From Deltaproteobacteria bacterium (GTDB taxonomy: Bacteria; Myxococcota_A; Polyangia; Polyangiales; JADJMO01): a DNA stretch of 64,000 nucleotides. The translations under genes were made by a program, and so were the position numbers. The DNA lies in assembly GCA_022843175.1 (NCBI GenBank), contig JALHOE010000001.1, positions 70,988-134,987 on the forward strand, given 5' to 3'. The notes beneath the pieces were generated by a model. That model worked only from the letters and a program-made list of their open reading frames with translations. It ran no database searches and was not told the DNA's origin. This document shows positions 2,891 to 45,140 of the stretch, piece after piece; within the stretch, counting starts at the first letter, position 1, and the number at the start of each line of letters is the position of its first letter.

Positions 2891-4759
2891 TCAGCGTCGT
2901 CGTCGCAGTGCGAGCGCGGTCACGACGGCCAACCACCCGAGCGATGGACCGAACTTCGTCGCTCCGGCGCCCATGCTGCAACCGCCACCATCGCTGCCGA
3001 CGTCGCCGTTCGGTCCCTGTGTCGCGCCGGGACTCCCGCCGCCGGAACCAGCGTCGCCGCCGGGCCCGGCCTCGGTGAACGTGCCGCCGTCCTTCTCGAC
3101 GGGATCCGGTTCTTCCTCCATCCCTGCGTCGAACAGACCACCATCCGGGGGTGCGGAGGGAGGCGGCGGCACCGTGGGGCCCGACCATCGTGTGAGCGCG
3201 TTGCGGATCATCGTCTCGTAGCGCGCGTCCTGGCTTCCCGCGAATCCGCCGCCCTTCGCGGCCCAGTCATCGAGCGCCCACGCCGTGAAGATCGCGCCCA
3301 TCGAAACGACCTCTGCGCCGGCCGGTGTACGGTAGAAGGCCGCCGAACCCTTGATCTTGCCGTCGGAGACTTGCTTGATCGCGCCAAGGACGCGCTGGCC
3401 AGGTGGCCGGAACTTGTCGAACTCGGGGCTGCTCGCGAGCGTAGAGTCGACTTCGTAACCGAAGACGTTGGCGATCTTGTCTCCGGCCTTCAGCCCAGTG
3501 CCGTCGTACAACCAGAACGTCGGATCGGTGACGATGAGATCCGCCCACGGGTAGAGACCGCCGTGCATCGGGTTGCCCGATGCATCGCGGATGATTCCTG
3601 CAGACTGCACGCCGGTGAGAAGCATGCCCGGACGACGCTCGTCGATCCCTGCTGCGGGATCGTACTCGAGGTTCTTCCACCCGCGCGTCACGAGGCGGTA
3701 CTTCGCCTTCGCCTCCTCGATCTTGCCAGCCGCTTTCAGCGAGTACGCTTCTTTCTGCATCGGGTCGCGCACCCAGCTCTCCTTGTACCCAACGATCGTG
3801 CTGCGCGGTCCGCCGGGACCCGCCTCGAAGCGCACCTGCCACGACCACGTGTCGCCCGAGAGGAAGAGGAAGTTCGCGCCGGCGTCGCGCGCACCCAGCG
3901 CGTTGTCATACATCGGCCGGCTTGTGTACTCCTCGTGTCCCGAGAACGTGATCACCTTGCGCCCCTTCGCGATCTCCGGATCGCGATCGAGGTCTTCATC
4001 GGTGCAATACGCGACCTCGTAGCCGTTCTTCTCGAGCCAGCGGATGAACGGGTACTCGTAGCCGCCGACGTCGGCGATACCGCCCCCAACGAGGAAGGGA
4101 CGATCGAGCGAGACCTTCACGGCCTGCGTCAACGTTCCGATCGATTCGCTCGGGTGCGCAGGGCTCGAGTTGAATCCGTAAAGGCTCTTGCCGCCGCGCT
4201 CCGGTCCCGGCCACGCGTTGTACACGGCGTGCGTCGCCAGTCCGACGACCAGGAGGATCGGCTGCTTCGCGGGCATCCCGTCGTCGCGCACGGTGAAGAA
4301 CGTGAGAGCCTGCTTGCCGCTCGCAGCCTCGACGCGCGCCACGTACAGGCCCGTGGTCCACGTCGAATCGGTCGGGACCGAGACCGAGTCCGGCCAACGC
4401 GCTTCCGCGATTCCGAACTTCTCGTCGGCCGCAGGGTAGCTCCGAGGCGACGCCGGTTGCGCGGTGATGACCTTCATCTCGCGCGCGCCGGTCCCGCCGT
4501 ACCACCCGAGTCGGAAGATCCGAACGTCGTATCCCGTCGTCGAATGGACCTTCAGCTTGACCGTATCGCCGCGTGCGATCGACCACTGCGCGGGGTAGAC
4601 GTCGACGACGCCGCCAAAGCGGGCCGTCCCATCGTTCACCACCGTCCAGCTTCCAGCGATGCCGCTCTTGCCGTTCTCTTCCGACACGACTCCGGCGTGC
4701 GCCACCGCGGATGAAGCGAGGGACGCGAGCACGAAGACCGAACCAACGACACGACGCAT
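2891..4759 (-). CDS. secreted N,N-dimethylformamidase beta-subunit-like (DUF6605-like) protein with a MYXO-CTERM sorting tag
   Basis: 622-aa ORF. Signal peptide (VFVLASLASSAVAHA). GAGGAGG Shine-Dalgarno before the ATG. Body resembles DMF-ase-like family by recall (RLGWYGG..., GLATHAVYNAW). C-terminus GGGCSMGAGATKFGPSLGWLAVVTALALRRRR is a Gly/Cys motif, a hydrophobic helix and an Arg cluster. Confidence 0.65.
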   Translation of the reverse strand: MRRVVGSVFVLASLASSAVAHAGVVSEENGKSGIAGSWTVVNDGTARFGGVVDVYPAQWSIARGDTVKLKVHSTTGYDVRIFRLGWYGGTGAREMKVITAQPASPRSYPAADEKFGIAEARWPDSVSVPTDSTWTTGLYVARVEAASGKQALTFFTVRDDGMPAKQPILLVVGLATHAVYNAWPGPERGGKSLYGFNSSPAHPSESIGTLTQAVKVSLDRPFLVGGGIADVGGYEYPFIRWLEKNGYEVAYCTDEDLDRDPEIAKGRKVITFSGHEEYTSRPMYDNALGARDAGANFLFLSGDTWSWQVRFEAGPGGPRSTIVGYKESWVRDPMQKEAYSLKAAGKIEEAKAKYRLVTRGWKNLEYDPAAGIDERRPGMLLTGVQSAGIIRDASGNPMHGGLYPWADLIVTDPTFWLYDGTGLKAGDKIANVFGYEVDSTLASSPEFDKFRPPGQRVLGAIKQVSDGKIKGSAAFYRTPAGAEVVSMGAIFTAWALDDWAAKGGGFAGSQDARYETMIRNALTRWSGPTVPPPPSAPPDGGLFDAGMEEEPDPVEKDGGTFTEAGPGGDAGSGGGSPGATQGPNGDVGSDGGGCSMGAGATKFGPSLGWLAVVTALALRRRR

Positions 4760-4867
4760 TGGGTGAACCTCCTCAAGCCGGCGTATGCCGGTCTGTCGCG
4801 GTCGTTCATCAAGCGTTGTGCCCTTCTCGGCTGTGCTGCCGCTTTACGGCAGACCCGGTCAGCGCCC

Positions 4868-4884
4868 GTGACTGCGTCGGTCAC
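4868..4884. promoter_or_regulatory. GTGAC-N7-GTCAC dyad (copy 3)
   Basis: perfect gtgactgcgtcggtcac; 109 bp upstream of the 4759 start (minus strand). Confidence 0.6.
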
Positions 4885-4965
4885 ACTTCTCGGAGCCGCT
4901 CCCAACCCGGTACACGGATCGTGGAGACGGCGATCCGAAGATCGGAGGCGTACAAGTTTCGCGTC

Positions 4966-5000: not shown

Positions 5001-5780
5001 TCATGCCGGTACGAGCGTGACGCGGTCGTTCTCGTCGCGACCACGGATCGCAACGAGCAGCACCACGCCGACGACGGCGAGCAACACGCTGCCGTACTGT
5101 GCCGGCGTCAGGCCCAGGTATCGAGCATCACCGACGCGAAGTGCGTCGAGCGCGAAGCGCACCGGAGCGTAGACCAGCGCAAGGAGTCCGGTGAAGAAGG
5201 CCGGCGGACGTCGACGACGACCGAGAACCGCGAAGAGAGCCGCGATGACGATCGTGTAGAGGGCCTCCTCAAGTCCGAGGTTGTGGCGAACGACGCCGTC
5301 GACGTACCGCTGACCGAGCACGAAGCTGGTGGCCCGCCCCACGTGATCGAACGCGAGCGCGCATCCGATTCGGCCGAAGATCCAGCCGAACGGAAAGGCG
5401 TACGCGATCGCGTCGACTTGACGCCACGAGTGTGCGGGCCGCCGACGCCAGATGTAGAGCGCAGCGCCCGCCACTGCGCCGACGAAGCCGCCGAAGGATC
5501 CGAGTCCGTCCCAGAGCCGAAACACACGCCATGGATCAGTGAGAAGCGTTCGCGGTTCGTAGAGCAGCAGATCGAGCACGTGGCCGCCGAGGAAGCCACC
5601 GAGCACCACCCAGGTCAGCATGCGGTCGATCTCTCCCGCGGGCAGCCCGATACGAACCGCGCGGCGGCGCGCGACCTCGGTTCCGACGAGCACCGCGATC
5701 GCAACGAGGACGCCGAAGGCGTAGATCGTCACCGGTCCGAGAGCGATCCGCGGCTGAGCAATGTACGGGAGCATTCGCAA
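5001..5780 (-). CDS. lgt: prolipoprotein diacylglyceryl transferase
   Basis: 259-aa polytopic membrane ORF with Lgt-type motifs (LGPVTIYAFGVLVAIA, GGFLGGHV, FGRIGCALAFDH, LGLTPAQYGS). Confidence 0.85.
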   Translation of the reverse strand: MRMLPYIAQPRIALGPVTIYAFGVLVAIAVLVGTEVARRRAVRIGLPAGEIDRMLTWVVLGGFLGGHVLDLLLYEPRTLLTDPWRVFRLWDGLGSFGGFVGAVAGAALYIWRRRPAHSWRQVDAIAYAFPFGWIFGRIGCALAFDHVGRATSFVLGQRYVDGVVRHNLGLEEALYTIVIAALFAVLGRRRRPPAFFTGLLALVYAPVRFALDALRVGDARYLGLTPAQYGSVLLAVVGVVLLVAIRGRDENDRVTLVPA

Positions 5781-12062: not shown

Positions 12063-12578
12063 ATGAAGGGATCGCTGCAGCTCGCATTCACGCTTGTAAT
12101 CGTCGTACTCATTGCCGGCTGCGGCGGAGCCGTCGCGAACGATCTCGGCGGATCAGACGCCGCGATCGACACCGCGGACGCGAGCGATGGGTCGTCGAGG
12201 GGCGCCGTGCGCTGTGGGACGGCAACGTGCGCCAGCGGGGAGGTCTGCGCCGTAAGTGCCGATGGGTCGGGGCAGTGTTACGTGCGAGGCAGCGAGCCGC
12301 TCCCCGGCAAGGCGCCGTTCCCCTGGCCATCCATCCTGCTTTATTGCGACGGCGATGACGACTGCGCAGCGGGCACCCGGTGCGTGGTTTCCCACGGAGA
12401 GGTGTTCCGCGCCGAGTGCCTGCCGGAGAGCGGAACGTGCGCGGCGCACGCGGGGCACGTCTGTTCCGATGACCGCGATTGCCACACCTGTCCGAACCCT
12501 GGAGATCCCGACAACCGGTTCACCTGCAAGCCGCTGCGCGTCGCCGGCGCGCCCGACCTCCACGCCTGCTCGCTGTGA
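12063..12578 (+). CDS. Cys-rich lipoprotein (Myxococcus-type cysteine-rich repeats)
   Basis: lipobox LIAGC; motifs CDGDDDCAAGTRC and CSDDRDCHTC; GGGAG upstream of the ATG. Confidence 0.7.
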   Translation: MKGSLQLAFTLVIVVLIAGCGGAVANDLGGSDAAIDTADASDGSSRGAVRCGTATCASGEVCAVSADGSGQCYVRGSEPLPGKAPFPWPSILLYCDGDDDCAAGTRCVVSHGEVFRAECLPESGTCAAHAGHVCSDDRDCHTCPNPGDPDNRFTCKPLRVAGAPDLHACSL

Positions 12579-12590
12579 CGTTCACCTCGA

Positions 12591-13283
12591 TCAGTCCGGA
12601 AGCGCCTTCAGCTTCGGGATCATCTCGCGCTCGGTGATGCTCGGCGGCTTGCCCTTGGCGACGATCTTCATCGTCGCGCGCTCGACAATATAGGTGTTCA
12701 TCTTCACGCCGAGCGTCTTCTTGGCGTTGAAGTCGGCGCCGTCCGGATCGCGGACGACCGTGAACGGCAGCTTCAGGCCGTTGATCCAGCCGGACACCTG
12801 CGCCTTCGTCGTCGGGTTATCCGGCGTCGTGCCCTCGAGCAAGACATTCACGAACATCGCCTTGCCCATCAGCTCGGCGTACTGCGCGCCCCCAGAGGTC
12901 AACGTCTCGCCGGTCATCGGGTCCGTACCATGCGCCACCGAACTGGTGGCGTTGCGGCAGATGCCTCACCAATATGCCGACGTCCAGATGAACGCGTACT
13001 TCTGTGTGCCCTGCGCGACGATCTCGGAGAGCTTCGCCGAGATGTAGGGAGCTGACGTTGCCAGGCCCGTCGCGACGCCATCGCGCACGTAACCCTCGAG
13101 CGGGAGATCGCAGAGGATGTCGCCGACGTTGGTGCCGCACGCGGGAGGCGTCTCCTCGACCGCGACGTCCTCGGCCGGTGCGTCTTCCGCTGCCACTCCG
13201 GTATCGGTGCCGGGACCGCTCGGCGAGCTCGTGCCGCAGCTCATCAAAGCTGTGAAGGAGAGAGCGATGAACAGACGACGCAT
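12591..13283 (-). CDS. thioredoxin-fold lipoprotein with in-frame UGA at the CxxC position (W-U-G-I-C); probable selenoprotein
   Basis: Track ORFs 12966-13289 and 12591-12938 are in the same frame, separated only by TGA (12966-12968). Read-through gives ...KYAFIWTSAYW-U-GICRNATSS..., which aligns with ...RYMVLNVAAFWCSPCKEEAKEM... of the 7365 paralog. Downstream blocks also align (MFVNVLLEG / VAFLTIVLED; ATMKIVAKG / QTMKIVTKV). Lipobox ALMSC after ATG 13283. Confidence 0.75.
12926..12959 (-). promoter_or_regulatory. putative bacterial SECIS hairpin
   Basis: mRNA UGCC GCAA CGCCACC AGUUC GGUGGCG CAU GGUA. It forms a 7-bp GC-rich upper stem, a 5-nt loop with GU, an internal loop and a 4-bp lower stem. 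It starts 7 nt after the UGA, and the loop lies about 21 nt after the UGA. Confidence 0.6.
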
Positions 13284-13322
13284 GATCACTTCCTACCTCG
13301 CTTTCCGGGGTACAGCCACACG

Positions 13323-14231
13323 TCACGATTTCGGGCGAACGCCGATCCACGTGAGGAGAGTGATGCCCTCGCCGGCGTCGGTCTGGATCTTTCCGCCGAC
13401 CACCTTAGCGGTCGCCTGTGCGACCGCCTTGCCGGCCGTGCGATCCTTTACGAAGTCGCTGCCCAGCGCGAAGATCTCCACCGCGGTGCCCTCCGCCAGG
13501 CCGCCGTTGTTCGCGATGGTCACGCCCACCTTCTTGGAGAATTTCGCGTCGAACGGCATCGCGCCGTAGAGCAGCGCTGGCGCGGGCTCCTTGGCGAACG
13601 CGGGAGTGTCCTTCGCGGCGACCTTGACGATGCGGAGCTCCTCGCCCTTCTCCTTGAGCTCGATGTCCTCGAGATCGAGCTCGACGGCCGTGCCGGCCGG
13701 GAACGTCAGCGTCACCTCGGAGGACGTGACCGACGCCTCTGACAGCACCGTGCGCGACGCCGCGTCAATTGGAAGTCGCGGGCCGGTCATGGGAGGGATG
13801 GGAAGCACCATGAGCGTGGGCAGCACGATGGCGCGCGTTGGACCCAGGGGGAGCTTCTCGAAGAGTCCGACGTATTCGGGACGACCGTGCACGTATGCCG
13901 CGAAATTCGCGACGTTGATGAAGTTGTCGACCTTGGCGACGAACGTTCCGTCGGCGTTCGTCTGTGCGTAGAAGCAGACGCTCCCGCACACCGAGACCAC
14001 CTTCTTCGCGAGCGGCGCGCCGGTCGTGTCGATCGCCTTCCCGCTGACCGTCTCCACACACTGCGCGGCCGGATCATCGGACGGTTCCGAGCACGGCGGC
14101 GCGGGCGTTGAGTCGCGACCGGCATCGCGAGCATCGCCGCCCGCGTCTGTGTTCGAGGGCACAGCGGCATCCGGCGTCGAGCTGCAGCCAGCGAACACGA
14201 GCGCCGTTGCGAATGCGAGCGATGAACGCAT
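13323..14231 (-). CDS. lipoprotein of unknown function
   Basis: ATG at 14231 gives MRSSLAFATALVFAGC lipobox; long ORF with coding-like composition; directly upstream of the selenoprotein gene. Confidence 0.55.
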   Translation of the reverse strand: MRSSLAFATALVFAGCSSTPDAAVPSNTDAGGDARDAGRDSTPAPPCSEPSDDPAAQCVETVSGKAIDTTGAPLAKKVVSVCGSVCFYAQTNADGTFVAKVDNFINVANFAAYVHGRPEYVGLFEKLPLGPTRAIVLPTLMVLPIPPMTGPRLPIDAASRTVLSEASVTSSEVTLTFPAGTAVELDLEDIELKEKGEELRIVKVAAKDTPAFAKEPAPALLYGAMPFDAKFSKKVGVTIANNGGLAEGTAVEIFALGSDFVKDRTAGKAVAQATAKVVGGKIQTDAGEGITLLTWIGVRPKS

Positions 14232-14271
14232 GAGGAACGCGCAAGCTAGCACCTGCGATCCCCCGGCGTGA

Positions 14272-21454: not shown

Positions 21455-22390
21455 TCAGCGGCGGAGACGGTCGAGTGGCACCAGCGGCGGCGCCGGTGAC
21501 TCCGGTTGGATCGTGACGTGCTCGATCGCGTGCTGCGCGCGGATGCGATCGACGACCGCGCCCGCGACCTCGACGCCGTGGTTGCCCGGCTTCAGCACGA
21601 CGTGCGCGCTCACGAGCGGATAGCCATCCGCGATCGACCACGCGTGGAGATCGTGCACCTCGGCCACACCGGGCGTTTCCCGGATGGTCTTCTCGATCTC
21701 GACCGGGTCGACTCCGTGTGGAGTCGTCTCGAGGAGCACGAGCGTCGTGCCACGAACGAGCCCCCACGACCCCCACAAGATCAGGAGCGAGATTATGATC
21801 GACACGATCGGATCGGCCCGCGTCCACCCGAACCACACGACGGCCGCGCCCGCGATCATCGCTGCTACCGAGCCGGCGGCATCGGCAAGCACGTGAGCGA
21901 GCGCAGCACGGAGGTTGGCGCTGTGTTGGCCGCGCGAAAGCACCCACGCCGAGATCAGATTGATGACGAGGCCCGTGGATGCGACGACGAGCATCCACCC
22001 TCCGGCGACGACCGGCGGGGCGCGAAATCGCCTCACTGCCTCGACGATGACCCACACGGCGCTCACGCCGAGGACCACACCGTTGACGAGCGCGGCGAGC
22101 GTCTCCGCGCGGCGTAGACCGAACGTGTACTTCGCCGTGCGAGGTCGATCCGCGAGGCGCTGCGCGAGGACCGCAATCCCGAGCGCAGCGGCGTCCGTCA
22201 ACATGTGGCCGGCGTCCGAGAGGAGCGCGAGGCTGCCCGTGAGCCATCCCGCGATCGCTTCGACCACGAGGAACGTCGTGGTGAGTGCGAGCGCCGTCAG
22301 TAGACGCGAGGCCGGCGACTGCGCATGCGAGTGCGGGCCATGGCTGTGAGCGCCCTGATCGTGATCGTGCGCGGAGTCGTGCTCTCCCAT
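21455..22390 (-). CDS. czcD: cation diffusion facilitator (CzcD/ZitB-like) with a His-rich N-terminus
   Basis: HDHDQGAHSHGPHSH tail; CDF motifs LLSDAGHMLTDAAAL and HVLADAAGS; C-terminal HDLHAWS domain. Confidence 0.9.
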   Translation of the reverse strand: MGEHDSAHDHDQGAHSHGPHSHAQSPASRLLTALALTTTFLVVEAIAGWLTGSLALLSDAGHMLTDAAALGIAVLAQRLADRPRTAKYTFGLRRAETLAALVNGVVLGVSAVWVIVEAVRRFRAPPVVAGGWMLVVASTGLVINLISAWVLSRGQHSANLRAALAHVLADAAGSVAAMIAGAAVVWFGWTRADPIVSIIISLLILWGSWGLVRGTTLVLLETTPHGVDPVEIEKTIRETPGVAEVHDLHAWSIADGYPLVSAHVVLKPGNHGVEVAGAVVDRIRAQHAIEHVTIQPESPAPPLVPLDRLRR

Positions 22391-22391
22391 A

Positions 22392-25300
22392 TCAGCCTCC
22401 TTCCTGCACGCGAGGAGGTCTCGCGAGCGCCGCGTAGACGACCGGCAGCACGAGCAGGGTGAGAACGGTCGCGGAGATCAGCCCGCCGATGACGACGGTC
22501 GCGAGAGGCCGCTGCACCTCGCTCCCCGGCGCGGTGGACAGTGCCATCGGAACGAACCCGAGGGACGCGACCAAGGCCGTCATGAGGACCGGGCGCAGTC
22601 GCATCTCGGATGCCTGTCGAATCGCCTGCACATGATCGACGCCCTCGGCCTCGAGGTGCCGCGCGAACGACACGAGGACGAGGCCGTTGAGCACGGCGAC
22701 ACCGAAGAGCGCGATGAACCCGACACCGGCCGAGATCGAGAACGGAATACTCCGCAACCACAGCGCGAAGACTCCACCGACGATCGCAAACGGCACGTTG
22801 ATGAAGATGAGCGCTCCCGCACGGAGGTCGCGGAATGCCAGCCACAGCATGAACATGATCAGACCGAGCGCGAGGGGAACGACGAGTGTCAGGCGATCGC
22901 GCGCCTCGGTGTAGTGCTCGAACTGCCCGCCCCACTCGACGTGGTACGCGGTGGGCAGCTTGATCTCGCGCTGCACGGCGGCCTGCGCCTCGCCGACAAC
23001 CGATAACAGGTCCCGCTTACGCACGTTGAACTCGACGGTGATGCGCCGCGACTGCTTCTCGCGGCTGATCTGCGCCGGGCCCGTGGTGAACTTGAGATCG
23101 GCGAGGTCGCCAAGGGGTACGACCTGTCCGGTCACCGATCGCAGCGGCAGAGACAGCAGTGACTCCATGCTGTCGGCGACGGAGTGCTGCGTCTTGATGA
23201 CGATCCCGAAGCGGCGCTCTCCCTCGAGCACCTCGCCCACGTGATGACCCACGGCGAGCGTCTCGGTGACGATGTTCACGTCCTCGATCGTGAGTCCGTA
23301 GCGGGCGAGCTTCGCGCGATCGGGCTGCACGCGCAGGTACTGGAGACCAGCCACCTGCTCGAGGCGGACATCGGTCGCTCCGGGGATCTTGCGCACCACG
23401 TCCGCGATTTTCGAGCCGATCGTGGCCAGCTCCGCGAGATCGCGACCGTAGACCAGGACCGCGACGTCGGAGCGGATCCCGGCAACGAGCTCGTTGGTGC
23501 GCATCTGGATGGGCTGCGACACCGCACCAGCGATCTCGGGCACGTCATGCTCGACGATCTCGGAGATCTGTTTCGCGAGTGACTCCTTGGTGACGCCCGC
23601 GCGCCACTCCTTCGGTGGCTTGAGGGTCACGTACACATCCGACTGCTCGACGCCCATCGGATCCGTCGCGACCTCGGGCGCGCCCGCGCGACTGACAACG
23701 GCCGCGACCTCGGGGATCTTCTTGATCGCCGCTTCGAGACGAAGGTCGGTCGCGACGGTGTTGCTGAGCGCAATGCCCGGAAGGCGGCGCGCTTCGACGA
23801 GCAGGTCGCCCTCATCGAGCTGCGGCACGAACTCAGCGCCGACGTGGCCGAAGAGCAGGCTCGCGACCGCGAGCGCCGCGACCGCGCCGGCCAATGGGAT
23901 CCATCGTCGTCTCAGTGCAGCGTCGAGGATCGGCGCGTAGACGGCGCGTGCACGACGAATCAGCCATGTCTCGTGCGAGCCCGGCTTCGGTCGCACGAAG
24001 AAGCTCGTGAGCACGGGAACGACTGTGAGCGAGAGCACGAACGCGCCGGCGAGCGCGAAGAGCACCGTGATGGCCATCGGCCGGAACAGCTTCCCCTCGA
24101 CACCCGTGAGCGCGAGGATCGGCAGGTACACGATCGCGATGATCGCCTCGCCAAAGACGCTCGCGGAACGAACCTCCAGCGTCGACGCGCGCACAACGTC
24201 GATCCTTTCCTCGTTATCGAGAGGCCGTCCGAGCTCGCCCGCGCGTTCTCCCAGCCTACGCACTGCGTTCTCCACGATGATCACGGCGCCGTCGACGATC
24301 AAACCGAAGTCGATCGCGCCGAGACTCATCAGGTTCCCCGATTGCCCCGTCGCGTTCATGAGGATGACGGCGAAGAGCATCGCCAGCGGGATGGTGGTCG
24401 CGACCACGAGTCCGGCGCGCAGATCGCCGAGGAGGACGAGCAGCACGAAGATGACGAGCGCCGCGCCCTCTGCGAGATTCTTCGCCACCGTCTTGATCGT
24501 GCGCTCGACGAGGACCGATCGATCGTAGAAGGACTCGATCTTCGTTCCCGCCGGCAACGTCGACTCGATGGCGGCGAGCTTCGTCTTGACCGCCTCGGTG
24601 ACGACGCGGGAGTTCTCGCCCATGAGCATCAACGCGACACCGATGACCACCTCGCCCTTTCCGTTCATCGACGCGGCGCCACGGCGGAGCCTCGCGCCAA
24701 AACGGATGTCGCCGACGGTCGCGAGCGTGATCGGAACCCCTTGCGAGGTCGCGCCGATCACGACGTTTCGCAGATCGTCGAGATCCTTGACGAGCCCTGT
24801 GGTGCCAATGACGAACTGCTCGCCCTCGTGTTCGATGTAGCCGCCGCCAGCGTTCGCGTTCGACTTCTCGAGCGCCTCGGCGACCTGCGTGATCGAGACA
24901 CCGGCGGCCTGCAGCCGCTTCGGGTCGAGGATGATCTGGTACTGGCGATCCTCGCCACCGAAGCTGTTCACCTCGACGACCCCCGGCACGGTGCGGAGCT
25001 GCGGCGCGATCTGCCAGTCGAGCACCTCCTCGACCTGCATGAGCGTCATGTGCTCGTTGCGCACGACGAACTGGTAGACCTCGCCGAGGCCCGTCGTGAT
25101 AGGCCCCATGTCCGGCCGTCCGTAGCGCGATGGCACCTTCTCCTGCGCCTCGCGGATCCTCTCGCCGACGAGCTGCCGCGCAAAGTAGATGTTCACGTCG
25201 TCGCGGAAAACGACCGTGACCACGCTGAGACCGTACTTCGACACGCTCCGAACCTGTGTCGATCCGGGGATGCCGGCCATCGAACGCTCGACCGGCACGG

Positions 25301-25505
25301 TGACGTACTGCTCGACCTCGAGCGGCGAGAGCGCGGGCGCCGCGGTGATGACCTGGACCTGGACGTTCGTGACGTCCGGCACCGCGTCGATCGGCAGCGT
25401 GAGCGCGGATCGAATGCCGAGCACGATGAGCAAGAGCGTCGCGAGCGTCACGACGGCGCGATTGCGCAGCGACCATTCGACGATTGCGGCGAGGAAGCGC
25501 ATCAC
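22392..25505 (-). CDS. czcA: HME-RND efflux pump, CzcA-type (divalent cation)
   Basis: 1037 aa with 12-TM RND architecture; signature GAIDFGLIVDGAVIIVEN typical of CzcA-type pumps. Confidence 0.9.
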   Translation of the reverse strand: MMRFLAAIVEWSLRNRAVVTLATLLLIVLGIRSALTLPIDAVPDVTNVQVQVITAAPALSPLEVEQYVTVPVERSMAGIPGSTQVRSVSKYGLSVVTVVFRDDVNIYFARQLVGERIREAQEKVPSRYGRPDMGPITTGLGEVYQFVVRNEHMTLMQVEEVLDWQIAPQLRTVPGVVEVNSFGGEDRQYQIILDPKRLQAAGVSITQVAEALEKSNANAGGGYIEHEGEQFVIGTTGLVKDLDDLRNVVIGATSQGVPITLATVGDIRFGARLRRGAASMNGKGEVVIGVALMLMGENSRVVTEAVKTKLAAIESTLPAGTKIESFYDRSVLVERTIKTVAKNLAEGAALVIFVLLVLLGDLRAGLVVATTIPLAMLFAVILMNATGQSGNLMSLGAIDFGLIVDGAVIIVENAVRRLGERAGELGRPLDNEERIDVVRASTLEVRSASVFGEAIIAIVYLPILALTGVEGKLFRPMAITVLFALAGAFVLSLTVVPVLTSFFVRPKPGSHETWLIRRARAVYAPILDAALRRRWIPLAGAVAALAVASLLFGHVGAEFVPQLDEGDLLVEARRLPGIALSNTVATDLRLEAAIKKIPEVAAVVSRAGAPEVATDPMGVEQSDVYVTLKPPKEWRAGVTKESLAKQISEIVEHDVPEIAGAVSQPIQMRTNELVAGIRSDVAVLVYGRDLAELATIGSKIADVVRKIPGATDVRLEQVAGLQYLRVQPDRAKLARYGLTIEDVNIVTETLAVGHHVGEVLEGERRFGIVIKTQHSVADSMESLLSLPLRSVTGQVVPLGDLADLKFTTGPAQISREKQSRRITVEFNVRKRDLLSVVGEAQAAVQREIKLPTAYHVEWGGQFEHYTEARDRLTLVVPLALGLIMFMLWLAFRDLRAGALIFINVPFAIVGGVFALWLRSIPFSISAGVGFIALFGVAVLNGLVLVSFARHLEAEGVDHVQAIRQASEMRLRPVLMTALVASLGFVPMALSTAPGSEVQRPLATVVIGGLISATVLTLLVLPVVYAALARPPRVQEGG

Positions 25506-26722
25506 TCCTCCTCCGCGAACGTCGATTTCAGCACGGCGCTCTTCAGCGTGAAGACGCCGCTAATGACGACCTGCTCGCCCTCGCGGAGGCCGGCGAGGAC
25601 TTCGACCTTTCCGATGCCCGACGTACCGAGGACGACCTCGTGCAGCTCGAAGTCGTCGTCTGGATGACGGACGAACACCACGCTCTTCCCGCCGATCTGG
25701 GTGACCGCGCTCCTCGGGACGACGAGCGTGGGCGGCTTGTCGACGGTCTCCTGCGTCGCGACGTGAGCGACTCCGAACAGCCCGATGCGCAGCTTGGCGT
25801 CGGCGTTCGCGAGCTTGATCCGCGCCGTCACCGTACGCGCCGCCGGATCGACCTGGAAGCCGACGACGTCGAGCGATCCGGGAAAGCGAACGCCGGGGTG
25901 GGCGTTCAGCTCGATCTCGGCGGGCGCTCCGATCGCGACCTGATGGAGGTCGTGTTCGAAGAGGCGCGCGATGAACCACACTTCCTTGAGATCCGCGATC
26001 GAGCCGACGCTCTCGTCGGCGGTGATGGGCTGGCCGACGACGGCGTTGCGCGCCAGCACCGTGCCGTCGATCGGAGCGCGAAGCGTGAGCTTCACGGCGC
26101 CGGTCGCACCTCCCATCGCGGCTAGTTCCGCGCCGAGCGCGGAAGCTTCGGCCTCGAGCGACGTTGCTTCAGCCTCGGCCTCGGCGAGCGCCTTTTTCGA
26201 GGCAATGCCCTCGCCCTCGAGCTCCTTCAGGCGTGTCGCCTGCGCCCGCGCGGCCTTTGCTCGCGCCATCGCGGATACATGCGCGGCACGAATGCGCGCG
26301 AGCTCGGGCACGCGGATGACGACGAGCGGATCGCCCTTCTTGACGTTCGCGCCGTCGAGGAACGTGACCTCTTCGATCCTTCCTGCGACCGGCGCCGCGA
26401 TCCTCGCCGACCTGTCCGGGTGCGCGGCAATCTCGCCGGGGAGCTCGACCTGCGCGCGCAGGACTTCCTTCTTCACGGGCTCGTTGCGGATCCCCGCCGC
26501 AGTGATCACCTGCGGCTGAAGCCTCACCCGTTTCGCCAGCCCGGCATGCGCGGGCTCGTCGTCGTGTTCGGGTTCAGAAGCGGCCGGCGCAGGGACGACA
26601 TTGGGCGCGGCGCGGTATCCGGCGCGATAGGCGATGACGCCTGTGGCAGCCATCGCGAGGAGAAGAACGACGCCGAGCGCGTTCATGCGCGCGCGGGAGA
26701 CTCGGATGTCGTCGTCGCTCAT
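25502..26722 (-). CDS. czcB: RND membrane fusion protein (CzcB-like)
   Basis: 406 aa; TM anchor, coiled-coil hairpin (AKAARAQATRLKELEGEG..AEAEATSLEAEA), beta-barrel domains; 4-nt overlaps with neighbours. Confidence 0.85.
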   Translation of the reverse strand: MSDDDIRVSRARMNALGVVLLLAMAATGVIAYRAGYRAAPNVVPAPAASEPEHDDEPAHAGLAKRVRLQPQVITAAGIRNEPVKKEVLRAQVELPGEIAAHPDRSARIAAPVAGRIEEVTFLDGANVKKGDPLVVIRVPELARIRAAHVSAMARAKAARAQATRLKELEGEGIASKKALAEAEAEATSLEAEASALGAELAAMGGATGAVKLTLRAPIDGTVLARNAVVGQPITADESVGSIADLKEVWFIARLFEHDLHQVAIGAPAEIELNAHPGVRFPGSLDVVGFQVDPAARTVTARIKLANADAKLRIGLFGVAHVATQETVDKPPTLVVPRSAVTQIGGKSVVFVRHPDDDFELHEVVLGTSGIGKVEVLAGLREGEQVVISGVFTLKSAVLKSTFAEEE

Positions 26723-27945
26723 GGCAGCGTTCCGGCCGCGGCGTCGAGCTCGATGCGTGCTTCAGCGAGCGCGAGCTCCGCGTCGAGCGCCTCTGTCGAT
26801 GCGTCTTGCAGCGTCTTGCGGAGAAGGAGGACGTCCGTGACGTTGCTGCTTCCGACGTCGTAGGCCTTGACCGCACGCGCGACGGCAACATCCGCGAGCG
26901 TCGCGACCTTCGCGAGCGCGTCGTGCGAGTCGCGCGCCGACGTCCAGCTGGCGTATGCCGCCTTGAGCTCCCCGATGGCCAGCGCACGAACGGCCGCGAG
27001 ATCGGCCTGGGCGGCGGCGACCTTGGCGTTCGCCGTCGCGATCGCGGTCTTGTTCGTGTTGAACAACGGCAACGGCAGTGACACGCCGACCGTCACGAAG
27101 TTCGTCGACTCGTGGTACTCGTAATTGCCGACGATGCCGAGCGTCGGCCACGCGTCTGACTTGGCGAGTCCGACCTGCGACCCGGCCGCGGTGACCGCTG
27201 CGGCGGCAGCCTGCACATCGGCGCGCTTGTCGATCGATGCGAGCAGCGTGTCGAGCGACTGAGGTGCGGAGATCGCGACGAGGTCACCTCCGACGCGGGC
27301 ATCCTCGGGAGCGCCGATGTACGCGACGAGAAGCGCTCGCTTCGCCGCGACGAGGCCATCGGCCGCCGACAGGCGTGCGTCCTCGCGCCCGAGCTCGATC
27401 TCGAACACGCTGGTGTCACCCTTCGCGATGTCGCCGGTCGCGGCGCGGCGCTTCGCGATGACCAGCAGGTTCGATGCGACCTCCTTGCGTGTCTTGGCGA
27501 GCGCGACGCCTCGCTGCGCACGGAGCGCGCGTGCCCAGCGAAGAAGCGCCTCGCGAACGACTCCGCGAAGACCGTCCGCGGCGCTCGCTTTCGCGGCGTC
27601 GACGTTCGTCGCGGCAGCGTCCGATCTTGCCTTCGGTCGTCCGCCGAGATCGAAGGGGATCAGCAAACTCGCGTTTGCCTCCGGGGTCTTCGGATCGCCG
27701 AAGCGCACTCCGCCCATCGCGGTCAGCGTGGGATTCGTCTGCGACACGATGCCCACGCCGACGGTGCCCGCCTTCGCGACGTCGACCTTCGTGGCGTTCG
27801 CCTTCGCGACGGGCGACTCGGTGCGCGCGTACTTCGCGACGCTCTCGCGATCGAGCACGACCGCCGCGTTGGCGACCTCGGCGTACGAACACAGCACGGC
27901 TCCGGCGAGCGCGATGCTCACCGACGAAGCGATCCAACCAGACAT
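26719..27945 (-). CDS. czcC: TolC-family outer-membrane factor (CzcC-like)
   Basis: ATG 27945 preceded by GAGGAGGAGG; signal peptide; two-repeat TolC-like helical pattern. Confidence 0.85.
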   Translation of the reverse strand: MSGWIASSVSIALAGAVLCSYAEVANAAVVLDRESVAKYARTESPVAKANATKVDVAKAGTVGVGIVSQTNPTLTAMGGVRFGDPKTPEANASLLIPFDLGGRPKARSDAAATNVDAAKASAADGLRGVVREALLRWARALRAQRGVALAKTRKEVASNLLVIAKRRAATGDIAKGDTSVFEIELGREDARLSAADGLVAAKRALLVAYIGAPEDARVGGDLVAISAPQSLDTLLASIDKRADVQAAAAAVTAAGSQVGLAKSDAWPTLGIVGNYEYHESTNFVTVGVSLPLPLFNTNKTAIATANAKVAAAQADLAAVRALAIGELKAAYASWTSARDSHDALAKVATLADVAVARAVKAYDVGSSNVTDVLLLRKTLQDASTEALDAELALAEARIELDAAAGTLP

Positions 27946-28102
27946 GAGAACCTCCTCCTCGGAGGCCCGCGGGCGTTGCCGCGGGCGAGCGCTACGCTCC
28001 AATTGCGGAGGTCAGCGCACTTCCAACGGACAAACTCGTCGCGCGCACGCGACGACGATGCGCCCCACCTGAGGGACGCCGCTGTTCACGGACGAGGAGA
28101 GA

Positions 28103-30346: not shown

Positions 30347-30685
30347 TCAGCGTGGCGCGAACGCCATGATTGCCATCCCCAGGATGGCGACCGACGCGCC
30401 GATCAGATCCCAGCTGTCGGGCTGCTGCTTGTCGACGAGGAACGCCCACGCGACGGCGACCGCAACGTACACGCCGCCGTACATCGCGTACGTGCGGCCA
30501 GCCGACGTCGGGTGCAACGTGAGCAACCATGCAAACGCCGACAGACTGAGTGCGGCCGGCAGAACGAGCCACAGCGATCCGCCGCGACGCAGCCAGAGAT
30601 ATGGCAGGTAGCACCCCACGATCTCGGCGAGCGCGGTCGCGACGAAGAGCGCGAACGTTCGAGCGATGGGCAACGGTGCTGACAT
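30347..30685 (-). CDS. ynfA: YnfA/UPF0060 family small membrane protein
   Basis: 112 aa; four TM helices; [13 protein letters not shown] and YGGVYVA motifs. Confidence 0.75.
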
Positions 30686-30701
30686 CTGCTTCGGTCCGAG
30701 A

Positions 30702-31424
30702 CTACTCCTTCGGACCGACGCCGAGCGCCGGCTTCAACGCGCCGAGCTGCCTTCGCTCCTTTTCTTCCGAATAGCGAGTCGTGAGGACATCGACCTGCGT
30801 CCGCAGGAGAAGGGTCATGCGGAACAGCTCCTCCATCACGTCGACAACGCGGTCCCGATAGCTCGAGGGCTTCATCCGCCCCTCTTGGTCGAACTCATCG
30901 AAGGCCTTCGGCACCGACGACTGGTTCGGGATGGTGAACATCCGCATCCACCGTCCGAGCACGCGCATCTGGTTCACCGCGTTGAAGGACTGGCTTCCTC
31001 CGGACACCTCGAGGACAGCGAGCGTTCGTCCCTGCGTTGGACGAACCGCGCCCGTGTTCAACGGCAGCCAGTCGATCTGGTTCTTGAACGCTGCGGTCAT
31101 CGCGCCGTGCTGCTCGGGCGACACCCAGACGTGCGCCTCGGACCAATCGCTCAGCTCGCGGAGCTCGCGCACCTTCGGAAGATCGAACGACTGTCGATCG
31201 AACACCGGCAACCCGCGCGGATCGAACAGGCGGACCTCCGCGCCGAAGCGAGTGAGAACGCGGACGCACTCCTCGGCGAGGTAGCGGCTGAAGCTCTTCT
31301 CGCGGAGGGAGCCGTACAAGACGAGCACGCGCGGCGGATGGGTCGGCAGCGGAGTCCGCGCGAAGCTCGCGAGCGTGGATTCGATGGTGTGCGGCGGCAG
31401 GTCGTCGTCGATCCGGTCGGGCAT
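30702..31424 (-). CDS. arsH: arsenical resistance protein ArsH (NADPH-dependent FMN reductase)
   Basis: [56 protein letters not shown] motifs. Confidence 0.85.
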
Positions 31425-31451
31425 GTGGTCGCTAGGTTGGTCGCAGAGCGA

Positions 31452-32699
31452 TCAGTCGGCCAGCTCGATCTTCGTGTCGGCCGCGAGCGCGATGGGCTCC
31501 CGCTGGGGCAGGAGCACCGAGATAGCGGTCGTGATCACCGTGAAGGCGAGCGTGCCGTAGAGGCAGCCCGCAATGCCGCCGATCTGGAAGAGCGCGCCCG
31601 AGAGCAGCGTGCCCACGAGCCGGCCCGCGGCGTTGGCCATGTAATAGAAGCCGACGTTCGTCGCGACCTTGTCGCCGTCGGAATAGGACAAGATCAGGTA
31701 CGAGTGCACGGCGGAGTTCAGCGCGAAGACGACGCCGAACACTCCGAGCCCGCCGATCAACAGCACAGCCGGCGGTACACCGGAGAGCAGTCCGAATGCC
31801 ATCGCCGCGGACGTGATCGTGAGAAGCAACGCGAGCACCTGCGCGGCTCGCCCCTGCGGCGCGTGACCACCGGTGAAGCGCACGAGCACCGTGGGGGTCA
31901 GCGACTGCACGGCGCCGTAGCCCACGACCCAGAGCGCGAGGAACGCGCCCACCTGTGTGAACGACCACCCGAGCTTTGCGCTGAGGAAGACCGGGACGCC
32001 GACGACGAACCAGATGTCGCGCGCGCCGAAGAGGAAGAGACGCGCCGCGGAGAGCGCGTTGATGTCGCGCGACTTCGAAAGGAGATGTTTGAACTTCGTT
32101 TTCGCCTTGGCCTTGCCCATCTCCGCCGGCAGCGACAGCACACACGCGACGAGGACCACGACGAGCGCGCCGGCCATGCCCCAGAGCGAGCCGCGGAACC
32201 CGGCGAGGGCTAGGAGCAACCCTCCGAGGAAGAAGCCCGCGCCCTTCAGCGCGTTCTTCGAACCGGTCAAGATCGCAACCCACTTGAAGAGCGCCGAGTG
32301 CGCGTCCTCGGGAAGGAGCACCTTGATCGAGCTCTTCGAGCTCATCTTCGTCAGATCCTTCGCGATGCCGGAGAGCGCCTGCGCCGCCATCACGTACGCG
32401 ACCGACACCGCCTTTGACCAGGTGGGGACGAGCAGCGACAACATGACAAGCGCGACGACCTGCATCGCAAGGCCCGAGAACAACGTGACCTTCAGGCCCA
32501 TGCGCGACGCAATCCACCCGCCGAGCAGGTTCGTGACGACGCCGAAGAACTCGTAGAAGAGGAACAGGAACGCGAGCTGGACGGGCGTGTAGCCGAGCTC
32601 GTGGAAGTGGAGCACCACGAGCATGCGGAGCGCGCCGTCGGTCAACGTGAACGCCCAGTACGCGAGCGTGACGAGGACGTAGTTCCGCAGCGCGCTCAT
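31452..32699 (-). CDS. arsJ: MFS transporter ArsJ (1-arseno-3-phosphoglycerate efflux)
   Basis: LRNYVLVTLAYWAFTLTDGALRMLVVLHFHELGY N-terminus typical of ArsJ; adjacent to gapdh. Confidence 0.8.
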   Translation of the reverse strand: MSALRNYVLVTLAYWAFTLTDGALRMLVVLHFHELGYTPVQLAFLFLFYEFFGVVTNLLGGWIASRMGLKVTLFSGLAMQVVALVMLSLLVPTWSKAVSVAYVMAAQALSGIAKDLTKMSSKSSIKVLLPEDAHSALFKWVAILTGSKNALKGAGFFLGGLLLALAGFRGSLWGMAGALVVVLVACVLSLPAEMGKAKAKTKFKHLLSKSRDINALSAARLFLFGARDIWFVVGVPVFLSAKLGWSFTQVGAFLALWVVGYGAVQSLTPTVLVRFTGGHAPQGRAAQVLALLLTITSAAMAFGLLSGVPPAVLLIGGLGVFGVVFALNSAVHSYLILSYSDGDKVATNVGFYYMANAAGRLVGTLLSGALFQIGGIAGCLYGTLAFTVITTAISVLLPQREPIALAADTKIELAD

Positions 32700-32709
32700 T
32701 CCGCGAGCA

Positions 32710-33720
32710 TCAACGGAGGCCGGCGCCGACCTTGCGCGCGAGATCGATCATGCGATGCACGTACCCGATCTCGTTGTCGTACCACGCGAGAATCTTCACC
32801 GACGTGCCGTCGACCACCATCGTGGAGAGCGCATCGATGATCGAGGAGTGCGGATCGTCCTTGAAGTCGATCGAGACCAACGGGCGCGTCTCGTAGGCAA
32901 GGATGCCCTTGAGCGGTCCCTCCGCCGCGCCCTTGAGGAGCGCGTTGACCTCTTCGACCGTGGTCGGCCGCGCCACCTCGAACACGCAGTCGGTGAGCGA
33001 CGCGTTGAGGAGCGGAACGCGCACCGCGAGGCCGTTCAACTTTCCCTTCAGCTCCGGGTAGATCATCGTGATCGCCGTTGCCGAGCCAGTGGTCGTCGGG
33101 ATGAGCGACATGCCCGAAGCGCGCGCGCGTCGGAGATCCTTGTGAGGAGCATCGACCACTGTCTGCGTGTTCGTCAGGTCGTGGATCGTCGTGATGACGC
33201 CATGCTTGATGCCGAGCCCCTCGTGGATGACCTTTACCACCGGCGCCAGGCAGTTCGTCGTGCACGACGCCGCTGTGAGCAGGTGATGCTCGGTCGGCTT
33301 GTACTCGTGATCGTTGACGCCGTAGACGATGTTCAGCGCCCCCTCCTTCACGGGAGCGGCGACGATGACCTTTTTCACGCCCTTCTCGAAGTAGGGAGCG
33401 AGCGTTTGCGGAGTGCGGAACTTGCCCGAGCACTCGAGCACGATATCGACGCCGGCGTCGCGCCAGGGAACCTCGCCTGGCGCCGCGCGATCGGTGAACC
33501 CGAGGCGCTTGCCCGCGATCTCGACCGCGCCCTCCCGCGCGTCGACCTTGTGCGGCCACCGGCCGTGCACCGAATCGAACGTGAGAAGGTGGGCTGCCGT
33601 CTCCGGCCCGCCCTTCGGCTCGTTGATGTGCACGAACTCGAGGTCCGGAGCTCCCCATCCCGCGCGAAGCGCGAGCCGCCCCATCCGACCGAACCCGTTG
33701 ATGCCGATGCGCACGCTCAA
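32710..33720 (-). CDS. gap: glyceraldehyde-3-phosphate dehydrogenase (ars-associated)
   Basis: [18 protein letters not shown] active site, WYDNEIGY; start is TTG 33720 or GTG 33714. Confidence 0.95.
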
Positions 33721-34154
33721 TGGTCACCGCCTTCCTCGACAATCATCAGCAACCGAATGCGACGTTCAAGACCGATCATCACGTCGTGAAACCGCTTCGC
33801 CATCGTGGCCTCGTCGAGGTCACCTTCGGCGGGGTCGCCGAACGACCAATGCGCCACGTGATCGCCGCGCATCGCGCCACACTCGCTCGTGGCACGGTCG
33901 CAGAGCGAGATGACGTAGTCGAAGTGCTGGCCGGCATAGCGCGACAGGTCCTTCGGCTCCTGCCCGCTCATGGAGATGCCGAGATCGGCGACGGCTTTGC
34001 GCGCGAGCGGATGGATATCGGGCCGCGGGCTCGTGCCCGCACTGAAGACCTCGAACCGGTCCCCGCCGATGTGCCGCAGCAGCGCCTCCGCCATCTGGCT
34101 GCGCGCCGAGTTGCCGGTGCAGACGAACAGAACGCGGATGGGTGCGGCGCTCAT
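33717..34154 (-). CDS. arsC: arsenate reductase, LMW-PTPase/thioredoxin-coupled type
   Basis: [18 protein letters not shown]-loop; ISLCD and SECG downstream Cys residues. Confidence 0.9.
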
Positions 34155-34246
34155 GCCGCCGGTTCTTCCAGATTTGCTTGCATGATGCAAGTACCTGTTG
34201 CGGGCGCCGCGATCCGTGTATCGTGCAAGCATCTGCCGGAGGCGTC

Positions 34247-39368: not shown

Positions 39369-39622
39369 CAGCCCGCCCCGAGGCCCATCTCGCGCAGCAC
39401 CGCGATATCGATCCCGCCCGCCGCGCAGCAGTCGGCGAGCTTCCCGTCGATGACGACGGCGGGAACACGCTTGATGCCAAACTTCTTGGCATCCGCAGCG
39501 ACCGCCGGGTCGTTCATGTCACGCACCGACACGGTGCAGTTCACACAAGCAGCCTGCTTCACCGCGGCGATCGCCTCGTCGCAGCAGGGGCACCCAGCAC
39601 TGAAAATCTGAACGTCAGCCAT
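39368..39622 (-). CDS. small glutaredoxin/thioredoxin-like protein (CPCC)
   Basis: MADVQIFSAGCPCCDEA...VPAVVIDGK pattern of redox-active disulfide protein 2 type; ATGA overlaps at both ends. Confidence 0.7.
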   Translation of the reverse strand: MADVQIFSAGCPCCDEAIAAVKQAACVNCTVSVRDMNDPAVAADAKKFGIKRVPAVVIDGKLADCCAAGGIDIAVLREMGLGAG

Positions 39623-40035
39623 CACACACCTCCACGCTTCAAACGGATTTGCACGAGCGGCGCCCACGGGTGCCGACGCGCCCACCAATCACTGACGAGC
39701 GCCGCGACGAGGAGCACCATGCCCACGTACAGGACGATCTCGTTGAGCAAGAACCGTCCGGTCATCGTCACGACGGCCGCCGTCGCACCGACGCCGATCG
39801 TCCACCATCGACGATGCCGTCGAGCCGACAGCACGAAGCCGATCAACCCGATGGTCAACGTGATGGCGAGGATCCAGCGCACGTTGCGCTCGACCAAGAG
39901 GAACCCGAGACCGAGCGAAGCGAGGATGCCGCCGGAAGTCGCGATGCAGATGGGGCAGAGCCCCTTCGGCACGATGACGGCGAGAACCGTTCCGACGGAT
40001 GACAGCCAGCGCGATCGCGAGAGGTCGTTGGCCAT
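39622..40035 (-). CDS. MerC-like metal transporter
   Basis: first TM motif GLCPICIATSGGILASLGLGFL (compare MerC GCAACFPALASFGAAIGLGFL); four predicted helices. Confidence 0.6.
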   Translation of the reverse strand: MANDLSRSRWLSSVGTVLAVIVPKGLCPICIATSGGILASLGLGFLLVERNVRWILAITLTIGLIGFVLSARRHRRWWTIGVGATAAVVTMTGRFLLNEIVLYVGMVLLVAALVSDWWARRHPWAPLVQIRLKRGGV

Positions 40036-40069
40036 GACCACACCTTGAGGTCTGTACGTAGATACCGAG

Positions 40070-41739: not shown

Positions 41740-42236
41740 CGCGCCCCTACGACGCGCGCGGCGAAAGTAGCCATCACACGTGCGCCGGCGACGGCGTTCG
41801 TCCAGAATTGGAGGAGCCTCGGTTCCTGTCGCACTGGCGGCCATCATCATCGCGTGCGGCGCCAGCGGCGATCACACCGCGACGACGCCGCGACCTACGA
41901 CAAGGAAATCGCGTTCCGCGATCTCGAGGTCGTCGGGTTCCTTGATCGGAACGCGGACGAGAATTGTCGCCGGAGGAATACGGGCCGTTCCGCGTGAGTG
42001 ATGTCGTCGCTGGGTCCCCCGACTATCCACTTGTGCACGTCGCGTTTCGGGTGTTGCGAGTGGTGCTGGGGGGAAGCGAAGGAGCAGATTCGCTGGTTAC
42101 GCGGCTACGGCGGTCGGCTGCGCGTGCTTCGGGTGTACGTCGATGACCTGCGCGGCCAGCGCGCGGACCGCGCGGACGTCGTCGGCCAGGATCGTCCATG
42201 TGTACGCCCGAACCTTCACCTGGATCGCGCCTCGGC

Positions 42237-45045: not shown

Positions 45046-45140
45046 CTCCGGTCACGCGGGAACTCGCGTCACGCGAGCGCGCCGATAGGTGACGCGACCG
45101 CCGTCCCGTTCGGTGGCGCGCTCGTTGCTGCTTGGGTGGT

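Follow-up and report, generated by a model that had tools for sequence, protein, structure and literature searches.

An in-frame UGA at the redox motif of a myxobacterial thioredoxin-fold lipoprotein gene is very probably read as selenocysteine

What should be made of a stop codon that interrupts a gene exactly where the first cysteine of a redox motif would be expected? The question is raised by a locus in a 64,000-nucleotide stretch of DNA from a bacterium of the order Polyangiales (GenBank assembly GCA_022843175.1, contig JALHOE010000001.1, positions 70,988 to 134,987), which we refer to in its entirety as the window. On the minus strand of the window two open reading frames (ORFs; 12966-13289 and 12591-12938) lie in one frame, and the sole stop that intervenes between them is a TGA at 12966-12968. 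A sequence-only reading of this DNA had proposed that the two ORFs make up a missed selenoprotein gene with a UxxC redox motif. Our analysis indicates that the gene very probably encodes an exported, thioredoxin-fold lipoprotein in which the UGA specifies an active-site selenocysteine (Sec), because of the conservation of the TGA column, the existence of Cys/Sec pairs, selection acting downstream of the codon, a hairpin with covariation, and the fold. The features on which the argument first depends are these:

12591 to 13283, minus strand: candidate complete selenoprotein gene of 230 codons, including one predicted Sec UGA, plus a terminal TGA; start at ATG 13283, with an alternative GTG at 13289.
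12966 to 12968, minus strand: in-frame TGA, taken as selenocysteine (U106), with which the UxxC motif W-U-G-I-C opens.
12957 to 12959, minus strand: TGC codon of the putative resolving cysteine of the UxxC motif, Cys109, in a column that is invariant across all family alignments.

Direct reading of the letters confirmed that the two ORFs share a frame and are split by this TGA only, as had been described. Read-through from ATG 13283, at which the public N-terminal half protein P0008 also begins, gives a product of 230 residues whose N-terminus, MRRLFIALSFTALMSC, comprises a signal peptide and a lipobox Cys. The product contains ...KYAFIWTSAYW-U-GIC-RNATSSVA... and ends at an ordinary TGA, in agreement with the 230-residue lipoprotein (FIWTSAYW-U-GICRN) that the sequence-only reading had put forward. 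The G+C content at third codon positions (GC3) of this frame is 0.80 upstream and 0.91 downstream of the internal TGA, compared with 0.46-0.53 in the other two frames, and because it is high on either side of the TGA both halves of the gene look coding. The CxxC paralogs with which the gene had been compared (AAFWCSPC, SAQWCPPC and ATWCKPC) are all found in the window, and the UGA aligns with the first Cys in homologs, which is the position that had been claimed for it. A BLASTP comparison with the 7365 paralog returned a single alignment that crosses the internal stop (E=4e-10), and the similarity reported on both sides of the UGA therefore stands. TGA is the terminator of 30 of the 42 window ORFs; a screen of the window for other TGA-interrupted genes gave no credible candidate.

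At the DNA level, nine distinct stop-containing genes were available, namely the window gene and eight relatives, which fall into two subfamilies about 30% identical to each other. Subfamily A (..SA[YF]W-U-G[IL]C) contains four genes (the window gene, L001:3227, L005:2298 and L010:1337) and subfamily B (..SG[FY]T-U-xxC) contains five (L003:10166, L004:190, L006:9971, L009:10892 and L011:47); where a source is named for the relatives, it is a metagenome-assembled genome (MAG) of Polyangiales or Polyangiaceae. Two of the subfamily-B genes, L003 and L004, came from a metagenome scan; at 30% identity, they too are interrupted at this column by an in-frame TGA (VSGFT-U-SAC and VSGFT-U-TGC). TGA occupies this column in 9/9 genes and TAA or TAG in none. 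All nine also use TGA as their final stop, from which it follows that the codon has not been globally reassigned.

The same comparison bears on whether the gene is simply broken. On that explanation, the TGA would be a nonsense change from TGC or TGT in a normal CxxC gene, or a sequencing error. It draws some weight from the homologs P0001 and P0002, which have Cys at this position (TGC to TGA being one substitution), from a ratio of nonsynonymous to synonymous substitution rates (dN/dS) that, measured against P0001, is higher downstream of the UGA (0.39) than upstream (0.20), and from a 15-residue insertion that the window protein carries within its active-site helix. However, the TGA is also present in the positional ortholog L001:2903-3562, in L005, in L010 and in the five subfamily-B genes, and dozens of independent fragments stop at the UGA column. 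Amongst TGA-bearing pairs, dN/dS downstream of the UGA is 0.18-0.35, with synonymous divergence (dS) of up to 1.8, and the 103-124 codons 3' of the UGA are free of frameshifts and stops. Judged by these ratios, the downstream half is under purifying selection in the TGA-bearing genes, and the loss of downstream sequence that would mark a pseudogene is not seen in the stop-bearing orthologs. The insertion, too, is conserved in at least five distinct relatives and for this reason is not regarded as decay. We consider a pseudogene or sequencing error highly improbable, and the proposal of a missed UxxC selenoprotein gains from having TGA at one column in nine genes of two subfamilies with selection downstream of it.

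Protein databases hold many more members of the family, mostly in pieces. A profile search of 5.8 billion proteins gave 61 matches, the majority being halves of about 100 residues; 12 distinct N-terminal fragments end in ...SAYW, ...SSYW or ...SAHW and 12 more in ...SGFT. A further 14 N-terminal halves, from different 50%-identity clusters, came out of an exhaustive HMMER search of 1.84 billion representatives, and all of them stop at the same column (...SAYW, SSFW, TAWW, AAYW, SAWW, VAFW, SGFT or GGYT). At least 38 distinct N-terminal fragments thus terminate exactly one residue before the UGA column, and matching C-terminal halves exist. With the same column occupied by TGA in eight further DNA sequences and forming the boundary of at least 38 fragments, the position of the codon is far beyond what chance would be expected to produce. 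Public annotations do break these genes into halves of about 100 residues, as had been anticipated of standard gene callers: the window gene is annotated as two hypothetical ORFs or left uncalled, and the same holds for dozens of relatives in NCBI, JGI, ENA and Logan. Merging the halves would mend a systematic annotation error and enlarge the selenoproteomes of myxobacteria.

Such annotations might be taken at face value, with the N- and C-terminal halves translated separately and then either assembling or working on their own, given that gene callers find a downstream GTG or ATG in every member. The starts chosen for the C-terminal halves vary, however (VAHG.., MASEY.., MGKAMF.., MALKYP.., MMFVE..), and lie at differing, non-homologous positions with no conserved start amongst them. 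The 9-17 codons between the TGA and these called starts are conserved in frame and include the invariant second Cys, which would be the resolving residue. Because the called starts differ and the codons that they skip hold an invariant Cys, independent initiation of the C-terminal half is not credible. A separate C-terminal half would also lack a signal peptide, though the protein is an exported lipoprotein by prediction, and we know of no precedent for a thioredoxin fold cut at its active site. We accordingly give a genuinely split gene almost no weight.

Full-length homologs with Cys in place of the stop complete the picture. In addition to P0001 (WCAPC) and P0002 (WCGIC), the HMMER search revealed forms with YWCGIC, YWCSMC, YWCPIC and WWCSPC. 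The alignment to Cys-containing homologs that the sequence-only reading had called for shows the expected Cys/Sec pairing, with U106 aligned to the first Cys of an invariant CxxC in P0001-P0004, P0019, P0022 and P0123-P0126.

The closest of these pairings is found on a single contig of a Polyangiales MAG (L001, contig JBKJQC010001038.1), which carries two copies of the gene, at 2903-3562 and 4320-4964. The first lies directly after a gene for a 308-residue lipoprotein, is the positional ortholog of the window gene and has the TGA (FVWTSAFW-U-GLC). The second, which encodes P0001, has TGC (W-C-A-P-C), shares 93% nucleotide identity with the Sec copy and retains an intact SECIS hairpin (SECIS, selenocysteine insertion sequence); it is a tandem duplicate, copied along with the 3' end of a multicopper oxidase gene. 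Identity to the TGA-bearing genes of the window, L005 and L010 is about 80-84% for either copy. We considered P0001 as "the Cys ortholog" of the window protein and rejected this, as it arose by a tandem duplication specific to its lineage and the same contig holds the positional ortholog, with TGA. Since that ortholog and the window, L005 and L010 genes all have TGA, the Cys copy is best read as derived by Sec-to-Cys conversion, in which case its hairpin would be a relic rather than evidence against a SECIS. The pair apparently represents a very recent conversion. Together with the two SECIS variants described below, which stand at equal distance from the UGA, it offers material for studies of Sec/Cys interconversion and of the co-evolution of SelB and SECIS.

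If Sec is inserted at this UGA, a SECIS would be expected within the coding sequence shortly downstream, and a candidate is present:

12933 to 12951, minus strand: SECIS-like hairpin core, with a 7-bp stem CGCCACC/GGUGGCG and apical loop AGUUC.
12926 to 12959, minus strand: possible extended SECIS, in which a lower stem UGCC/GGUA encloses the core via an internal loop; present in the minimum free energy (MFE) structure, not in the centroid, and weakly supported.

The hairpin, CGCCACC-AGUUC-GGUGGCG, begins 14 nt past the UGA with its loop 21 nt past, and is the centroid structure at -13.6 kcal/mol. In the published bacterial SECIS (bSECIS) model the loop is 3-9 nt, the stem 4-16 bp, the distance from the UGA 16-37 nt and the MFE -7.5 kcal/mol or lower (PMC13188914, Fig. 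2 legend), and the loop has a G within its first two positions followed by G or U (PMC13188914). The hairpin fits this model in all nine TGA-bearing genes (window: 7 bp, AGUUC, 21 nt, -13.6 kcal/mol), and the earlier description of a GU-containing loop about 21 nt from the UGA, within SECIS range, proved exact in sequence. The loop starts 21 nt past the UGA in both subfamilies, although its form differs between them. Subfamily A has the 7-bp stem and a 5-nt loop AGUUC (GGUUC in L010), and subfamily B has a 4-bp core, lengthened to 5-7 bp in differing ways, and an 8-nt loop CG[G/U]GAYNU; both loops have G at position 2 and then U or G, in keeping with the bSECIS consensus (PMC13188914). Every stem cell is paired in the four A genes and the five B genes. 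Pair 21:36 of subfamily B is G:C in three genes, U:A in L009 and C:G in L011, with both columns at synonymous third positions of Ala codons, and the basal pair of subfamily A is C:G in the window and G:C in L001, L005 and L010. Relatives without the 15-codon insertion form another lower stem, of 3 bp (CCG/CGG).

The remaining strand of evidence is the protein itself, for which the following features were assigned:

13236 to 13283, minus strand: predicted lipoprotein signal peptide MRRLFIALSFTALMS-C with lipobox Cys16, assigned by sequence pattern; position -2 is Met, which is atypical.
12594 to 13145, minus strand: predicted thioredoxin-fold (TlpA/ResA/AhpC-like) domain of the mature protein, from the AlphaFold2 (AF2) model of P0001 and Foldseek.
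12888 to 12932, minus strand: 15-codon in-frame insertion HGTDPMTGETLTSGG (H118-G132), clade-specific and directly 3' of the hairpin.

A Cys follows the hydrophobic stretch in at least 90% of homologs and a comparable lipobox occurs in every N-terminal half fetched; with its signal peptide and lipobox Cys, the product is a predicted bacterial lipoprotein. Its fold was approached through the AF2 model of the Cys paralog P0001, which is 79% identical to the window protein and is without the 15-residue insertion. The model has a mean confidence score (pLDDT) of 84.9, exceeding 90 over the domain, and places the CxxC (105-108) just before a helix (106-122). Foldseek matched it to DsbE (3gl3), ResA, TlpA-like reductases, AhpC/Prx, a deiodinase and Etrx1/Etrx2, with E values for DsbE, ResA and AhpC of 3e-6 to 1e-4. 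On this model, the window protein is predicted to adopt a thioredoxin fold in which helix 1 carries the redox motif at its N-terminus, and the thioredoxin-fold lipoprotein of the sequence-only reading is upheld. We ruled out a selenoprotein of the peroxiredoxin kind (TxxU, PxxxTxxC-type), as the motif is W-U-x-x-C with no Pxxx[TS]xx context; the motif context is that of a predicted CxxC-type disulfide oxidoreductase, not of a peroxiredoxin. Mapped onto the P0001 model, the 15-residue insertion falls midway along the helix C-terminal to the UxxC motif. It is missing in P0001-4, L001, L003, L004, L005 and L010, is kept with substitutions in P0005, P0064, P0067 and P0068, and is partly present in P0063, P0065 and P0066, whose calls start inside it. 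Subfamily A has in addition an extra conserved Cys pair at residues 47-58 (13110-13145, minus strand; A-C-G-T-N-V-G-D-I-L-C-D), where subfamily B and the Cys forms instead have Y-P-x-G-P-Y-G...A; this pair probably forms a branch-specific structural disulfide.

A number of observations weigh against selenocysteine at this position, and these need to be set beside the evidence above. Folding of the 60-76 nt past the UGA is no more stable than that of shuffled sequences (z = -0.6 and +0.3). When, as a background test, every TGA triplet on either strand of the window (1420 in all) was put through the bSECIS constraints, 12.7% passed with a stem of at least 7 bp and 76% with a 4-bp stem. The same 17-nt hairpin core is present in the DNA of the Cys-containing paralog P0001. 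Covariation is thin, with one varying pair per subfamily in 4-5 sequences each and shuffle controls of 24/500 and 135/500. Rfam gave no match to the whole window at gathering thresholds or to 12800-13100 at E values of up to 10; this null is uninformative since, to our knowledge, Rfam holds no bacterial SECIS family. At the protein level, Pfam and NCBIfam returned no significant match, the best being PF00578 (E=0.22, 11.9 bits against a cut-off of 26), and the window protein is unusual in having the insertion within its active-site helix. The genes selA, selB, selD and tRNA-Sec were not found within the 64-kb window, which is the part of the source genome covered. Sorangium, a cultured member of the Polyangiaceae, is not among the Sec users of one published survey (PMC5029168, supplementary file 3).

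Given that its folding energy is not significant and that 12.7-76% of background TGA triplets pass, we rejected the hairpin as stand-alone evidence, and it is the comparative data that carry the case. The covariation, likewise, is treated as supporting evidence and not as proof, there being only 4-5 sequences per subfamily and modest shuffle controls. The earlier use of the hairpin as evidence is therefore sustained in part: the model fits and there are compensatory changes, but in GC-rich DNA the hairpin is weak alone, and it is shared by a Cys paralog. As for the Sec machinery, neither tRNA-Sec nor a sel gene was present in any fetched relative locus. The use of Sec is documented in other myxobacteria, namely Anaeromyxobacter, Myxococcus, Haliangium and Plesiocystis (PMC1794560; PMC5029168, supplementary file 3); these reports cover other myxobacteria only, and we found no literature on Sec use specific to Polyangiales.

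These considerations matter most for a reading in which the UGA is decoded, though as one of the standard amino acids (Trp, Cys or Gly, through near-cognate decoding) rather than as Sec, with the hairpin merely stimulating read-through. The hairpin could indeed be a generic read-through stimulator, and the absence of Sorangium from the surveyed Sec users points in the same direction. Against this, the UGA coincides precisely with the position of the nucleophilic Cys in a redox motif, a classic Cys/Sec pair, where Trp or Gly would abolish catalysis, and inefficient misincorporation of Cys would not be favoured over TGC in so many lineages. The hairpin geometry and G[G/U] loop fit the bSECIS model in both subfamilies (PMC13188914), and the use of Sec is known in the phylum (PMC5029168, PMC1794560). 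Decoding as a standard amino acid is, on balance, very unlikely.

If the UGA is read as Sec, a ribosome at 12966-12968 would be served by SelB-GTP-Sec-tRNA(Sec) bound to the hairpin, with its loop 21 nt downstream, in the manner of the established bacterial mechanism; Sec would be inserted in place of termination and 124 further codons would be translated to the true TGA stop. The signal peptide would export the product and Cys16 would be lipid-anchored. In the cell envelope the protein may act as a thiol/selenol-disulfide oxidoreductase, with Sec106, at the start of the fold's first helix, as the likely attacking nucleophile and Cys109 resolving the mixed selenenylsulfide. We infer the insertion of Sec and the binding of SelB, and equally the substrates and electron donor of such a reaction. 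Envelope disulfide reduction or isomerisation, or the control of peroxide or metal damage, under copper or metal stress would be the most likely roles in view of the gene context. A link between an envelope redox function and copper or oxidative stress is a reasonable inference from that context.

How does the protein relate to systems already described? The inventory of bacterial selenoproteins stands at 119 families and subfamilies, of which UxxC thioredoxin-fold proteins are the commonest predicted class (PMC13188914). The UxxC families listed include a Prx-like thiol:disulfide oxidoreductase (PF00578), a thiol-disulfide isomerase-like family (cd02966) and a Redoxin family (PF08534) (PMC13188914, Table 1). 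Like the window protein, the published families have a thioredoxin-superfamily fold with Sec in place of the first Cys of CxxC, coexist with Cys homologs, and have a SECIS in the coding region just after the UGA; they too have been predicted by comparative genomics only. On every computational criterion used for such families, the present gene reads as a selenoprotein gene. Unlike the published families, the window protein falls below the Pfam threshold and is without an NCBIfam match, and all members of its family are predicted lipoproteins. It failed the gathering-score test for PF00578 and PF08534; distant homologs (P0022, P0044, P0050, P0059 and P0061) carry these domains. The lipoproteins quite possibly constitute a new, uncatalogued family of this kind. 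The principle is not new, UxxC thioredoxin-fold selenoproteins already being well known (PMC13188914).

Amongst Cys-dependent proteins, the nearest analogues are TlpA, ResA, DsbE (CcmG) and the pneumococcal Etrx1/Etrx2, which share the extracytoplasmic anchoring and the CxxC at the N-terminus of helix 1. Structural matches to the P0001 model in this group (3gl3, 2h1b, 1su9, 4nmu, 4hqs and 4hqz) have target-normalised TM-scores of about 0.7-0.8. These proteins use Cys whereas the window protein would use Sec, sequence identity is only 14-21%, and they have neither the extra N-terminal segment with a C-x9-C pair of subfamily A nor the 15-residue helix insertion of the window clade. TlpA functions in the maturation of copper proteins, which echoes the copper-oxidase neighbourhood of the window gene. 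The candidate SECIS can be compared with that of Escherichia coli fdhF and with the bSECIS model, with which it shares a stem-loop within the ORF just past the UGA, a small apical loop starting with G and then U or G, and spacing in the 16-37 nt range. Compared with fdhF, the window loop starts one codon farther from the UGA and there is no bulged U.

The genes around the locus provide the context referred to above:

13323 to 14252, minus strand: gene for a 309-residue lipoprotein, upstream on the same strand, 39 nt from ATG 13283 and 33 nt from GTG 13289.
21455-28002, 30347-34232, 39622-40104, 45132-46259 and 56969-62995: metal-resistance island, with two CusCBA-like resistance-nodulation-division (RND) efflux systems, a cation diffusion facilitator (CDF) transporter, MerC, an ars-like block and a DUF305/DUF4142 protein.

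The gene for the 309-residue lipoprotein adjoins the Sec gene in L001, L005 and L010 too, at 65-81% identity, and in L012 a homolog with 31% identity is found downstream of the Cys-form gene, two genes away; the lipoprotein gene is probably a conserved partner in the same operon. The protein has no Pfam match. Its AF2 model (pLDDT 90.5) is very confident and all-beta and drew generic beta-sandwich matches only, none of the PDB analogues being informative. Its sequence contains conserved Cys pairs together with an invariant His, and more than 50 homologs occur in myxobacterial MAGs and metagenomes. Around the gene pair are two multicopper oxidases, a di-haem cytochrome c peroxidase, three Cys-type AhpC/TSA-like proteins, a DUF6029 protein, lgt and a TonB-dependent receptor. 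The window yielded no electron donor of the CcdA or DsbD type.

It is plausible, and we propose it with some hesitation, that the gene belongs to an envelope selenoprotein family, lipid-anchored and so far uncatalogued (W/T-U-x-x-C), whose named sources are Polyangiales and related myxobacteria and which is functionally coupled to the beta-sandwich lipoprotein of about 300 residues and to copper-oxidase and metal-stress loci. If this is true, selenium would form part of the envelope defence against copper and oxidative stress in largely aerobic soil predators. A lipid-anchored, extracytoplasmic selenoprotein in a copper and metal-resistance island would connect selenium supply to envelope redox or copper tolerance of myxobacteria in a way that can be tested.

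Several further features of the window may be recorded. The 171-residue putative lipoprotein encoded between a multicopper oxidase gene and the selenoprotein gene (12063-12578, plus strand) has more than 14 Cys and no Pfam match; a conserved link to it was considered and rejected, a homolog being present in none of the related loci. The ars-like block comprises glyceraldehyde-3-phosphate dehydrogenase (GAPDH), a major facilitator superfamily (MFS) transporter, a low-molecular-weight (LMW) phosphatase and a flavin mononucleotide (FMN) reductase. An integrase-core fragment at 41052-41945 suggests that the island is mobile. A 530-residue fusion of a vitamin K epoxide reductase (VKOR, DsbB-like) domain with SPW repeats is encoded at 54619-56211 on the plus strand and is a possible envelope disulfide oxidant of the island. 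Finally, the prolipoprotein diacylglyceryl transferase gene (lgt; 5001-5780, minus strand) stands beside the lipoprotein gene cluster and may be an additional lgt copy that serves this island specifically.

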